A stretch of DNA of 64,000 bases from an uncultured archaeon (GTDB lineage: Archaea > Asgardarchaeota > Lokiarchaeia > Sigyniarchaeales > SOKP01): positions 32,001-96,000 of the forward strand of contig CAZALK010000012.1 in assembly GCA_964486045.1 (NCBI GenBank), in the 5' to 3' direction. Below, piece by piece: positions 38,535-45,587 of this stretch. The notes under the pieces are model-generated. The model was not told the origin of the DNA. It searched no databases and saw nothing but the letters and a program-made list of their open reading frames with translations. The position numbers and the translations under genes are program-made. Within the stretch, counting starts at the first letter, position 1. Each line of letters starts with the position of its first letter.

Positions 38535-38658
38535 ATGAAATCACTTTTTTTGTTTGTTTAATAGTAGTTTTTAATAAATTCTAAATATTTTCCTTCCTTC
38601 TGATATATATTATATACAAAGTTCAAATTAATTGTTACTAAAATTATTCCCGATTATC

Positions 38659-39279
38659 ATGAACCTCAAAAAAGCTTTTGCAGAAATATCTAATTTATTT
38701 GACTCTCTTTATAATAATAGAGAAAAAATTTTACGATTATCTCGTAATATCGTTCGAAATTGTAGTATAGGTATTAAACATATTCATCGGAAAGAATTCA
38801 GTATGTTTCAAGAGAAAAGAAATAGTATTAAACTAGATCTTGAGACTTTAGGAAACCTTGTCAATGTGAATCCTGGTGTGTTTTCAAAATACCTAAAAAC
38901 ACCAGAACAAGAATATACAGAATTAACTGTGTTTTACGCAATTATTAACAGTAAGGAAATCCCCCTACCATCAGATTTGAAAATTAGCCCTATTAATTTT
39001 GCTTTGGGATTAGCAGATGTCATAGGAGAATTAAGAAGATATGCATTAGATAATATTAGAAACTCTCAAACAAATGATTTGAACAAAATTTTAGAAAGTA
39101 TGGACGAAATTTATACTTATTTATTTTCTGTTGATTATCCTGTGGGAGTGACTCAAGATTTAAGACGAAAGGTTGATGTGGCAAGAAATATTATTGAAAA
39201 AACTAGGGGAGATGTCTCTCTTGCCATTCAAATGAATGAGTTAAAGCAATGTTTTGAAAATGAGGAGAAACAGAAGTGA
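38659..39279 (+). CDS. Translin-family protein
   Basis: REKILRLSR, EQEYTE, LGLADVIGELRR, LRRKVDVAR..IEKT. Confidence 0.9.
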   Translation: MNLKKAFAEISNLFDSLYNNREKILRLSRNIVRNCSIGIKHIHRKEFSMFQEKRNSIKLDLETLGNLVNVNPGVFSKYLKTPEQEYTELTVFYAIINSKEIPLPSDLKISPINFALGLADVIGELRRYALDNIRNSQTNDLNKILESMDEIYTYLFSVDYPVGVTQDLRRKVDVARNIIEKTRGDVSLAIQMNELKQCFENEEKQK

Positions 39280-42615: not shown

Positions 42616-44700
42616 TTAGATGATTTTACGATACTCAAATTCCCATGACTTCTTAACAAATAGAGAATCATTAATTGTATCATAAATTATTTCTCTTTCA
42701 CTCAAACCTCCCAGATCTTCAGCTTCTATCTTAATTTCTAATAGTTGTAATTCATTTTTTACCGTATCAATATTTTCTTGATAAGTCATGTCATAATCTA
42801 AAAATAACTTAGCTCCACCGATGATTAATGCCTTTATATCATCTCTATTCGCACCATTGTACAGTAAGTTATTAAATAAATCTTTGACAGACGTATCAAC
42901 AAAGGTGTGAGGAAAAATTAAGTGATATCCTTGCTTTGAAGCTGATGAACTCGGTAATGATATGTGAGAGATAGCAAAAACATTATTTTTGGGATCTCTT
43001 AAAATTAAACCAATACCAGAACCTAAACCTTTTATTCTAAATTTTGTTGCTGTATTGCTTTTATCGAAGGAATGTATTAAGCTATAATAACCCCTCTGGA
43101 TAGTTAATTCTTTTTTGTCTGAAGACTTTTCTACTCTATCGATTCTTTTTTCTTCATATAGGGAAAAATCTTCTTCCTCCTGGTTAGAACTCTCTAATTT
43201 CTTCGAGCTATTTTTTATACGAAGCTCTTGTTGAAGCTTTTTCTTAGAATACTGCTCCATTTTCGATAAACGTTTTTCTAATTGTTCTTCCCTCTGATTT
43301 AGATTTCTCTCTCTTTGCTCAATTTGCCTTGTGATGCGTTCTAATACTAACAAACGATTCGTGACTTCTTGTTCTTTCTCTTTTGTCTGAAAAATGAGAT
43401 TCTTTACGGCTATTTTTTCACTTTCCAAAATTTTACATTGTTCTTCTAAATATTTTAACTTCTCATCGATCCCATTTTCTCTTTGATTTAAAAGTATTTC
43501 TCGTTGAATTAATTTGTTCTTTTGTTTTTTAACTGGATCTCCTTCAACTTCTAAATGATGAATAAGATTGACTTTAGGTGTTTTATCCTTAATTCCGTTA
43601 TTAACTACTATTCCGGTGATCCTAACTTCTGCAGGTTCAATATGTGGTTTTATTTCTAAGTCTTCTAATTTCTTCCTATTTTTTAGTTCTTCATTATCTA
43701 ATATGATTTCGGTCGGTTTAATGGATTTAAATGTACTTTTAGGCTTCTTCCTTACTTTCCGTACAGTGCGATTTTTGGAAATTGTATCTTTTTTAGTTGT
43801 TCCCTTTATTTTCTGTTTTTTAAATAATGAAATTATTAAATTTTTATAAGATTCTGTCGTATCAGATAAGTTTTTAATATAAAAATGATCTCTAATACTG
43901 ACAGATTTAAAACTAAAATTTTTCTTTGGTATATTCTCAGAACCTCCTAAAACTAATAAGCCCCCATCATGCATTCGCTTATTTATATTTCTAAGTAAGT
44001 TTTCACGAGCAAAGCTATTAATATAAATAAAGAAATTCCTACAAAAAATTGAGTCATATACGTTATTTTTTTTATGCCCTTTAATAATATCTTCTTGAAT
44101 TAGTTCAACTTTGCTCATAACATCTTTGCTAAGCGTGTATTTTGGACCAAATTCAGTAATCTCCTTTGAAAAATAAGTGTTTAAATAATGCTCTGGCATT
44201 TCATGTACTGCATATTCCCCATAAAATCCATCTTCCGCAATTTTAAGAGCATTTACATCAATATCAGATGCGTATATTTTAAAATCAGGAAAATTCTTAC
44301 TATTTTTTACCAAATTGTCTAATATCATCGCGAGGGTATAGGGTTCATCGCCTGTAGCGCACGGACAAGACCAAATCTTAAGAAATTTCGTTTTATTTTC
44401 TTTTACATAAAATTTAATAAACTTCTCAAAATTCTGAAACACATTTAGATTTCTGAAAAAATAAGTATAATTAATTGTAAATTTATCTAAGAATAAATCA
44501 CCCTCTATTGGGTTTTTATAAATGTAATCAATGTAATCTTGATAGCATTCAAGGTGAAGATAATTCATACGAAAACTAATTCGCTTCTCGATGAATTGCC
44601 TCTGATATTGATCAAATTTCAGCCCCGTGGCTTCTTTTAGTTTCTCAATCAGAGCGTCAATAGAAGTCGACTTGAATGCTGATGGGTTAGTTAGAGAAAT
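42616..44700 (-). CDS. CheR methyltransferase - coiled coil - CheD-like fusion; probable non-canonical ATT start at 44700
   Basis: CheR motifs TINYTYFFR, IWSCPCATGDEPYTLAM, ASDID, IFCRN; CheD motifs GLGSG, H.SLP, FVDT, GGAKLF, AEDLGG. The frame stays open and CheR-like for 44 codons upstream of ATG 44568. Confidence 0.88.
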   Translation of the reverse strand: MSLTNPSAFKSTSIDALIEKLKEATGLKFDQYQRQFIEKRISFRMNYLHLECYQDYIDYIYKNPIEGDLFLDKFTINYTYFFRNLNVFQNFEKFIKFYVKENKTKFLKIWSCPCATGDEPYTLAMILDNLVKNSKNFPDFKIYASDIDVNALKIAEDGFYGEYAVHEMPEHYLNTYFSKEITEFGPKYTLSKDVMSKVELIQEDIIKGHKKNNVYDSIFCRNFFIYINSFARENLLRNINKRMHDGGLLVLGGSENIPKKNFSFKSVSIRDHFYIKNLSDTTESYKNLIISLFKKQKIKGTTKKDTISKNRTVRKVRKKPKSTFKSIKPTEIILDNEELKNRKKLEDLEIKPHIEPAEVRITGIVVNNGIKDKTPKVNLIHHLEVEGDPVKKQKNKLIQREILLNQRENGIDEKLKYLEEQCKILESEKIAVKNLIFQTKEKEQEVTNRLLVLERITRQIEQRERNLNQREEQLEKRLSKMEQYSKKKLQQELRIKNSSKKLESSNQEEEDFSLYEEKRIDRVEKSSDKKELTIQRGYYSLIHSFDKSNTATKFRIKGLGSGIGLILRDPKNNVFAISHISLPSSSASKQGYHLIFPHTFVDTSVKDLFNNLLYNGANRDDIKALIIGGAKLFLDYDMTYQENIDTVKNELQLLEIKIEAEDLGGLSEREIIYDTINDSLFVKKSWEFEYRKII

Positions 44701-44843
44701 TTTTTTACACCAAAACTCTTATGATTGTAATTTTTTACTCTAGGATAATAAGATTTTAATTATTTTTAATTTTTTGTAATAAAAAAATGTGTTATCAGAT
44801 GTTACGTAATAAAAAAACTAAGATTTGTGGTAAAAATTAGAAG

Positions 44844-45587
44844 TTAATTAAAAGAGATAAATCCCATTTTTACAAGATTTTTGCATATATTATAGACTTT
44901 CCTTTGCTCTATATTTAATTTTTTTGTAAGAATATCGATGGTCCTCTTTCCATCAATATTTTCAAATATCCTAATTGAAGTATCTCCTGTTAAGTAATTT
45001 TTTGCATTAATAGAACTAGATCCTACGAAGCTTGGTATAATATTATAATATTCTGGATTTGGTTTATTTTCTTCTGTGCTTTCTCTTATTTTTACTCTAT
45101 TGTCTGTTTCAAAACTCGTTAGCCAATCAAATGCTTTTTCGTCATCATGATTCTGGTTTTTTATCTCTTCTTCATTGATTTGTTGTTCGATTATACTTTC
45201 AAATGATTTAAAGTTATCTAATTTCCCATTCCAAGTTGCAATTTGATTTAAATTAAAAGTTCCTAAAAAGAGTGCTGAAATTTGTTTTAAAAATCTCTGG
45301 ACACTCTTCAGATCTGAATCTTTATCAAATGTGGCAAGGAAAATTAAATCAGAAATGTTTGAATCTTTTAAAAAAGACAATTTTAAATTATTATTTGAAA
45401 GTTTTAACTCACTAATCGTTCCTAAATCTTCAAATGAATCCGAAAACGAATTTAAAGCTGAAAAAAAACCAGAAATCATTATTAAGTTATCTAATTCTGA
45501 GAACATACTTTTGACTTTAGAAGAATTAGAAAAGCTCTTAGATAATAAAGGTAATCCGTCTTTTATAATCAAAACATCGCAAATCAT
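44844..45587 (-). CDS. Longin-like domain fused to C-terminal winged helix
   Basis: IIKDGLPLL...ISGFFSALNSFS...ISELKL; C-terminal IDGKRTI..L...L......VYNICKNLVKMGFI. Confidence 0.65.
   Translation of the reverse strand: MICDVLIIKDGLPLLSKSFSNSSKVKSMFSELDNLIMISGFFSALNSFSDSFEDLGTISELKLSNNNLKLSFLKDSNISDLIFLATFDKDSDLKSVQRFLKQISALFLGTFNLNQIATWNGKLDNFKSFESIIEQQINEEEIKNQNHDDEKAFDWLTSFETDNRVKIRESTEENKPNPEYYNIIPSFVGSSSINAKNYLTGDTSIRIFENIDGKRTIDILTKKLNIEQRKVYNICKNLVKMGFISFN

Follow-up and report, generated by a model that had tools for sequence, protein, structure and literature searches.

In one family of Loki-type Asgard archaea, the chemosensory system has a conserved accessory protein that joins a CheR methyltransferase to a coiled coil and a CheD-like domain

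The stretch of DNA analyzed here (64 kb, in the following called the window) belongs to contig C12 of a 5.18-Mb archaeal genome of ~30% GC content. On its minus strand, among housekeeping genes, lies a single reading frame that joins a CheR methyltransferase, a basic linker, a coiled coil and a CheD-like domain. What is such a protein for, if no receptor or other chemotaxis gene is recognized around it? A first reading, made from the sequence of the window only (in the following called the sequence-only reading), had described it as an orphan, a repurposed glutamate-methylation device in which a dead CheD reads coiled coils and the internal coil may be a dimerization arm or the substrate. From the comparison of many genomes, we conclude that the fusion protein serves the chemosensory system of one Loki-type Asgard family as a conserved accessory, rather than being a stand-alone device.

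Domain architecture and conserved residues

Pfam profiles and an AlphaFold2 (AF2) model, based on an alignment of 60 homologues and with a mean predicted local distance difference test score (pLDDT) of 76.9, confirmed on one frame the proposed succession of CheR, basic linker, Q/E/R-rich coil and CheD-like domain. The gene and its parts are the following, with residues counted from an ATT codon at 44700 that is discussed below:

42616..44700, minus strand: whole fusion gene, 694 codons from ATT 44700 (CheR_N-CheR, disordered linker, coiled coil, pseudo-CheD)
44509..44658, minus strand: CheR_N, all-alpha domain, residues 15-64 (Pfam PF03705, 6.6e-9; AF2 helices 14-25, 34-47 and 53-62)
43891..44472, minus strand: CheR S-adenosylmethionine (SAM)-dependent methyltransferase domain, residues 77-270 (Pfam PF01739, 6.9e-43)
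43540..43815, minus strand: basic, disordered linker of ~90 residues, residues 296-387 (pLDDT <50; low conservation; ratio of nonsynonymous to synonymous substitution rates, dN/dS, 0.66)
43597..43638, minus strand: conserved island within the linker, residues 355-368, consensus E..EV.IT.I.VNN (no structure predicted there by AF2)
43195..43536, minus strand: coiled coil, a single helix of 114 residues, residues 389-502 (AF2 helix, pLDDT ~90)
42619..43140, minus strand: CheD-like domain, putative pseudoenzyme, residues 521-694 (Pfam PF03975, 4.2e-15, residues 582-684; confident in AF2)
43015..43029, minus strand: GLGSG motif, with Gly562 (codon 43015-43017) at the position of the nucleophile Cys27 of Thermotoga maritima CheD
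42964..42966, minus strand: His579, the retained equivalent of CheD His44 (HMMER alignment to 2F9Z_C)

Both Pfam matches in the CheR half exceed their gathering cut-off of 27, with 35.8 bits for CheR_N and 146.8 bits for the SAM domain. The CheR_N match requires a translation start before Met45, for which ATT 44700 is the most likely codon. AF2 models residues 14-293 confidently as the CheR part, and comparison to solved structures gave the CheR proteins of Bacillus subtilis (PDB 5FTW, 5.6e-30) and Salmonella (1AF7, 3.9e-22; 1BC5 also aligned). As in these enzymes, there is a two-domain core with an all-alpha N domain, a SAM domain with a beta-subdomain, and invariant motifs. The SAM-binding and catalytic residues W110, S111, G117, E119, S145, D146, E203, D204, C220, R221 and N222 are the same in all 60 homologues, and the aligned motifs agree with those of 5FTW. 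The CheR domain is therefore complete, as the first reading had it, and looks like that of a working receptor methyltransferase. Against the NCBIfam CheR equivalog NF007902 it scored 104.8 bits, far under the cut-off of 435; by this measure it is a member of the CheR family, not an equivalog of enteric CheR. Unlike ordinary CheR, it is followed by ~400 extra C-terminal residues, which make up linker, coil and CheD-like domain.

The C-terminal domain reached 56.3 bits with the Pfam CheD profile (gathering cut-off 25), and the best of the NCBIfam CheD equivalogs (NF041119 and others) gave 78.4 bits, far under the cut-off of 240. HMMER aligned it to T. maritima CheD (2F9Z_C) with an E-value of 2.9e-14, matching GLGSG to LGLGSC and AISHISLP to AMAHVMLP, so that the LGSC motif indeed reads LGSG while the His is retained. 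The change is not a peculiarity of this protein. Among 94 full-length homologues the nucleophile column holds Gly in 73, Ser in 18, Glu in two and Asp in one, and Cys in none, and the His44 column holds His in 75, Asn in ten, Tyr in eight and Arg in one. The domain thus resembles the CheD deamidase (T. maritima 2F9Z; the B. subtilis CheC/CheD system) in fold, sequence and the retained His, but differs from it in that the whole fusion family lacks the nucleophile and in that the domain is never free-standing but fused behind CheR. The free-standing CheD of the same genome, 39% identical to it, keeps both GLGSC and the His. These comparisons support the earlier claim of a dead CheD and extend it to the whole fusion family.

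The catalytic triad of CheD consists of Cys27, His44 and Thr21, and the residue at the Thr21 position is variable across the deamidase fold (PMC7022378). We considered Thr21 as a second lost triad residue and dropped it: at this position, six residues before the Cys, the fusion protein has Ile, and so has the genome's own active-looking, Cys-bearing CheD. A five-residue insertion after the His motif is conserved in the CheD-like domain, whose best-conserved part is formed by the residues around the former active site.

Between these two domains, the coil is a single long helix as previously read, although of 114 rather than ~130 residues. Its hydrophobic periodicity is maximal at 3.5 residues (power 1.98; 7-residue harmonic 1.06; all other periods tested ≤0.16) and its length is conserved across homologues (gap fraction ≤0.08). 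Because of this sharp periodicity and the conserved length, it is a true heptad coiled coil; the periodicity also rules out a charged single alpha-helix. Such a coil would fit the suggested dimerization arm. It does not resemble a receptor substrate. We scanned for the receptor methylation consensus [ASTG]xx[EQ][EQ]xx[ASTG] and found no site in the coil of the fusion protein and sites in only 2 of 60 homologues, whereas the same scan yielded 3-4 sites in a 276-aa methyl-accepting chemotaxis protein (MCP) of the same genome. Since the consensus is missing from the coil, self-methylation is unlikely, and we rejected the coil as a receptor-like substrate of its own CheR.

A short disordered joint separates the coil from the CheD-like domain in the AF2 model. 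The CheR, coil and CheD parts are under purifying selection, with a dN/dS of 0.11-0.16 as opposed to 0.66 on the linker, a pattern that would fit three functional modules joined by a spacer. The conserved island within the linker may be a short docking motif.

Association with receptors and decay at a fixed site

The ten open reading frames (ORFs) nearest to the fusion gene are housekeeping genes, and its neighbors include an archaeal-type threonyl-tRNA synthetase (ThrRS), a CTP-dependent riboflavin kinase and a GHMP-family kinase that we take for mevalonate kinase. Searching the genome for MCPsignal, CheW (which also detects CheA), CheB, CheR and CheD, we found no match on C12 except the fusion itself. 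The reported lack of chemotaxis genes in the 64 kb is hence correct for MCP, CheA, CheW and CheB, all of which matched on other contigs, while CheY was not specifically searched in the window. The term orphan, however, describes local gene order alone. Contig C10 carries a complete che cluster encoding CheW, CheY, CheA, two unknown proteins, CheW-CheC-CheX, a 184-aa protein, CheR, CheB, CheD, CheC and a Ras-family GTPase, with a second CheB nearby, and other contigs contain ten MCP-domain matches, a third CheB and a third CheR. In total, the genome encodes three CheB and, besides the fusion, two CheR proteins. The sequence-only reading had named Cys-bearing homologues together with a normal chemotaxis system in the genome as what would speak against it; the latter exists in the form of the C10 cluster, and the former are absent among the 94 homologues.

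The CheR domain of the fusion is 43-44% identical to the CheR of this cluster. The cluster CheR (L017:7328-8359) has an insertion of ~75 residues between N domain and SAM domain, which the fusion's CheR does not have. Further observations on the cluster (L017, G000:C10:62000-81500) concern its triple fusion of CheW, CheC and CheX, the 184-aa protein, which has a weak gelsolin match (E 0.025), and the non-che genes for the Ras-family GTPase of 319 aa and a DUF11-like protein of 671 aa.

To follow the fusion beyond this genome, we collected proteins of the same architecture. This search yielded ~100 clusters at 90% identity that combine CheR and CheD in the same arrangement, 610-742 aa in length, all from metagenomes or metagenome-assembled genomes (MAGs) of Asgard archaea and named in the database only as "CheR family methyltransferase". 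An exhaustive HMMER search added ~25 full-length representatives at 50% identity. The source names of the homologues place the family in the Promethearchaeota (Lokiarchaeia). Among 400 genomes of the phylum, the full-length fusion occurs only in the GTDB family of the window (f1), there in the genera g1, g4, g7, g11, g12 and g13. An assembly artefact, which the first reading had allowed for, is excluded, as the CheR and CheD parts share a single frame in ~100 protein clusters and in 39 independently assembled genomes.

Family f1 comprises 135 genomes. Related genomes are non-independent samples, and we claim no statistical test for the following counts:

MCP-positive genomes: 53/135
CheW-positive genomes: 46/135
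Genomes with a full-length fusion: 39/135
Fusion-bearing genomes that are also MCP-positive: 39/39
Fusion-bearing genomes that are also CheW-positive: 34/39
MCP-negative genomes with an intact fusion: 0/82

In g12 (G249) and g13 (G272, G273 and G274), the fusion gene is located 3-7 kb from CheW, CheA and MCP genes. In g1, g4, g7 and g11 it always lies in the same housekeeping neighborhood, with ThrRS, translin, a cytidylyltransferase, RibK, a CDP-alcohol transferase, a 101-aa ORF and in some cases a GHMP kinase on one side, and a 247-aa gene and an NTP-transferase on the other. At this site, relatives that have lost their receptors show different kinds of damage:

G179, G183 and G200 (99% complete, no MCP match): clean deletion, the two flanking genes abut
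G228 (no MCP match): residues 574-693 left
G188 (no MCP match): residues 592-693 left
G182 (no MCP match): residues 460-693 left, with frame breaks
G220 (no MCP match): residues 7-298 and 586-693 left
G192 (one MCP match, no CheW): residues 15-96 and 444-693 left, internally deleted

The different end points of these lesions argue for several independent losses of the fusion. Together, the co-occurrence with MCPs, the decay in relatives without MCPs and the adjacency to the che cluster in g12 and g13 tie the fusion protein to the receptors.

We also looked for possible partners. The 276-aa MCP mentioned above (L007:1471-2301, G000:C26) is minimal, with 2-3 transmembrane helices and a short signaling hairpin, and is overlapped upstream by a 119-aa membrane ORF. 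Within the genus, 18 genomes contain an orthologue (at least 77% identity) and every one of them bears the fusion (18/18), but this MCP is missing from nine fusion-bearing genomes and is therefore only a lead and not a dedicated partner. The third CheB (G000:C5:236962-238134; L051, L052) is an orphan with a conserved non-che neighborhood. Most genomes of the genus that have MCPs contain it, whereas G226 and G228, both MCP-negative, have only remnants of it left, the same pattern as for the fusion.

Next to the fusion gene, on its upstream side, lies the following gene:

44844..45587, minus strand: protein of 247 aa with a longin fold and a C-terminal winged helix (AF2 and Foldseek; Asgard archaea only)

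Foldseek matched this protein to VAMP7, Sec22b, AP sigma, TRAPP and NPRL-type subunits of GATOR1. The gene adjoins the fusion in 16 of 20 orthologous loci, syntenic in four genera, but is not beside it in g12 and g13. An obligate pair of the two genes was rejected, since G179, G183 and G200 have lost the fusion but kept an intact neighbor. On the other side, a translin-family gene (38632-39279) adjoins the archaeal ThrRS gene in a block conserved throughout the family.

The start codon of the fusion gene

According to the ORF listing, the ATG-initiated frame spans 42616..44568 on the minus strand and encodes 650 aa. The frame remains open upstream of this ATG as far as an in-frame TAA at 44721-44719. 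The gene end in the first reading, 44700, is an ATT codon; counted from there, the product has 694 aa, and residues 1-694 are covered by homologues of 693-706 aa. The relevant elements are:

42616-42618, minus strand: stop codon of the fusion gene
44698..44700, minus strand: probable non-canonical start codon ATT (ATT or ATA at this position in orthologues, ATG nearby in a few)
44708..44711, minus strand: GGTG, Shine-Dalgarno-like, 7 nt upstream of the ATT and part of a conserved TTGGTGTAAAAAAT(T/A) element

Pfam, the alignment and AF2 show that residues 1-44, whose amino acid sequence is conserved, are part of the CheR_N domain. The window gene has no in-frame ATG, GTG or TTG in the interval from the upstream stop to the first helix of this domain, which is conserved. 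The same holds before the helix in 10 of the 14 orthologous loci with a readable motif; most orthologues lack a canonical start there (L020, L022-L028, L032, L035 and L037). Most of these loci have GGTG 7-8 nt ahead of a conserved ATT or ATA, often with an in-frame TAA in between, and in L020, L022-L025, L027, L028, L035 and L037 motif and spacing are as in the window gene. Some database homologues start with M at or near the position of the ATT.

Because the N-terminal 44 residues are conserved and no canonical start codon is available for them, this comparison suggests initiation at AUU or AUA as the simplest explanation for the missing start in the fusion family. Such a start would also explain the shortened database entries of 649-650 aa, as gene callers clip the fusion to Met45. 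If real, it would add to the few documented examples of near-cognate initiation in archaea. The probable AUU or AUA start distinguishes the fusion gene from ordinary cheR, as does its location, which in most genera is separate from the che cluster.

Proposed role and alternative readings

How would the fusion protein act on receptors? The reading that we prefer, with moderate confidence, is that of a dimeric accessory MCP glutamate methyltransferase of the Lokiarchaeial chemosensory system that is tethered by its dead CheD. The N-terminal CheR would be the catalytic part and methylate MCP glutamates, while the C-terminal CheD-like domain, having lost its nucleophile, would serve as a binding module only. 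We infer that this domain recognizes the methylation-helix region of MCPs, as bound by active CheD, that the 114-residue heptad coil leads to a dimer or higher oligomer, and that the flexible linker of ~90 residues gives the tethered CheR access to sites on the same receptor or on neighboring ones. The conserved weak start, AUU or AUA behind GGTG, would probably keep the protein scarce. Regarding the binding step, most of what CheD contributes to chemotaxis in B. subtilis comes from its binding and not from its deamidase activity (PMC3513319), and CheC has been likened to the receptor substrate of CheD, which it is said to mimic (PMC8960835).

The proposed tether would do the same job as the NWETF pentapeptide of enteric bacteria (Escherichia coli, Salmonella), following the same logic of a high-affinity anchor and a flexible arm that raise the local CheR concentration. 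In the enteric system, anchor and arm are the receptor C-terminus, which binds the beta-subdomain of CheR. Unlike there, both would here be built into the enzyme. The MCPs that we read lack the pentapeptide: xWxxF was found at the C-termini of none of seven MCPs of this genome and none of three from relatives. Single chains that join CheR to a further domain, for receptor modification or for sensing, also include the PAS-CheB-CheR proteins, which appeared as distant matches. In contrast to the fusion, however, these bacterial proteins contain an active CheB and PAS sensors but no CheD-like domain or long coil, and they share only 24-31% identity with the CheR studied here. In full-text literature searches, neither a CheR-CheD fusion nor the chemotaxis adaptation enzymes of Asgard archaea turned up as the subject of any paper.

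Several points weigh against the tethered methyltransferase. The co-occurrence with MCPs fits any MCP-dependent role and not a tether specifically, and the related genomes are not independent of each other. The genome already has two ordinary CheR proteins. In genus g5, in G189 and G194 (g1) and probably in G184 (76% complete), a che system exists without the fusion, which must therefore be a dispensable accessory and not a core part. Finally, the argument for the AUU or AUA start is purely one of sequence comparison.

The main rival explanation, which we regard as unlikely though worth keeping in view, is a CheR gated by CheC. The dead CheD would bind CheC or the CheW-CheC-CheX protein, and phosphorylated CheY (CheY-P), acting via CheC, would regulate the amount of free CheR, so that the CheC/CheD adaptation loop and the methylation loop would be merged. 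CheD of B. subtilis binds CheC at its active-site face, the more strongly with CheY-P (PMC3513319), and CheD of Halobacterium is a hub that binds CheC2, CheC3 and CheB (PMC3579733). Both possible partners, CheC and the CheW-CheC-CheX fusion, are encoded in the genome's own che cluster. Yet G210 (97% complete) and G223 (95% complete) keep intact fusions under purifying selection without any CheC match, even if their che cluster may simply be unassembled, and the distribution of the fusion follows MCPs (39/39) closer than CheW (34/39).

The same two genomes are the basis of another possibility, to which we give little probability, namely a kinase-independent module of the fusion, the orphan CheB and short membrane MCPs (276-380 aa) that could work without CheA and CheW and have another output. 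With four MCP matches in G210 and nine in G223 (open frames all ≤382 aa), an intact fusion and one orphan CheB, neither genome has a match for CheW/CheA or CheC, and the break in synteny in G223 coincides exactly with the flank of the che cluster that is missing. The restriction of the 276-aa MCP to fusion-bearing genomes points in the same direction, although nine such genomes do without it, and the orphan CheB is also found in che-positive genomes that lack the fusion. Moreover, G210 and G223 are draft MAGs in which the genes flanking the cluster are missing too, and the nearest surviving flank gene in G223 sits on a 5.3-kb contig whose remainder is not syntenic; an unbinned contig explains these gaps as well as a deletion does. 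That fusion, orphan CheB and short MCPs persist and work in the absence of CheA, CheW and CheC, toward a non-kinase output in archaea without an archaellum, is in our estimate improbable.

The original proposal of a stand-alone glutamate-methylation device outside chemotaxis, with its own coil as substrate, drew on a single chain with writer and reader domains and would agree with the position among housekeeping genes in four genera. It is now largely refuted and very improbable: the fusion is never intact without MCPs, decays where these are lost and stands beside the che cluster in two genera, and the methylation consensus that occurs 3-4 times in one of the genome's MCPs is missing from the coil. 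That the CheD-like domain is still an enzyme, a Ser hydrolase or one using the His with another nucleophile, and deamidates or demethylates receptors next to CheR is likewise hardly credible: the His (75/94), the well-conserved former active-site surroundings and the Ser in 18/94 homologues would speak for it, but the Gly found in 73/94, including this protein, has no side chain to act, and proteins of the related deamidase fold invariably have the Cys (PMC7022378).

The host adds interest to the tethered methyltransferase, as it has a Loki-type Asgard che cluster with a Ras-like GTPase and its genome gave no match for CheF or archaellin. To our knowledge, almost all that is understood of how CheR is targeted comes from the pentapeptide tether of enteric bacteria. 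If our preferred reading is true, the fusion would clearly exemplify the conversion of a deamidase into a binding module, and a CheR that carries a receptor-reading pseudoenzyme together with a rigid coil of constant length and a flexible arm would represent a second, independently evolved solution to the targeting of this enzyme.

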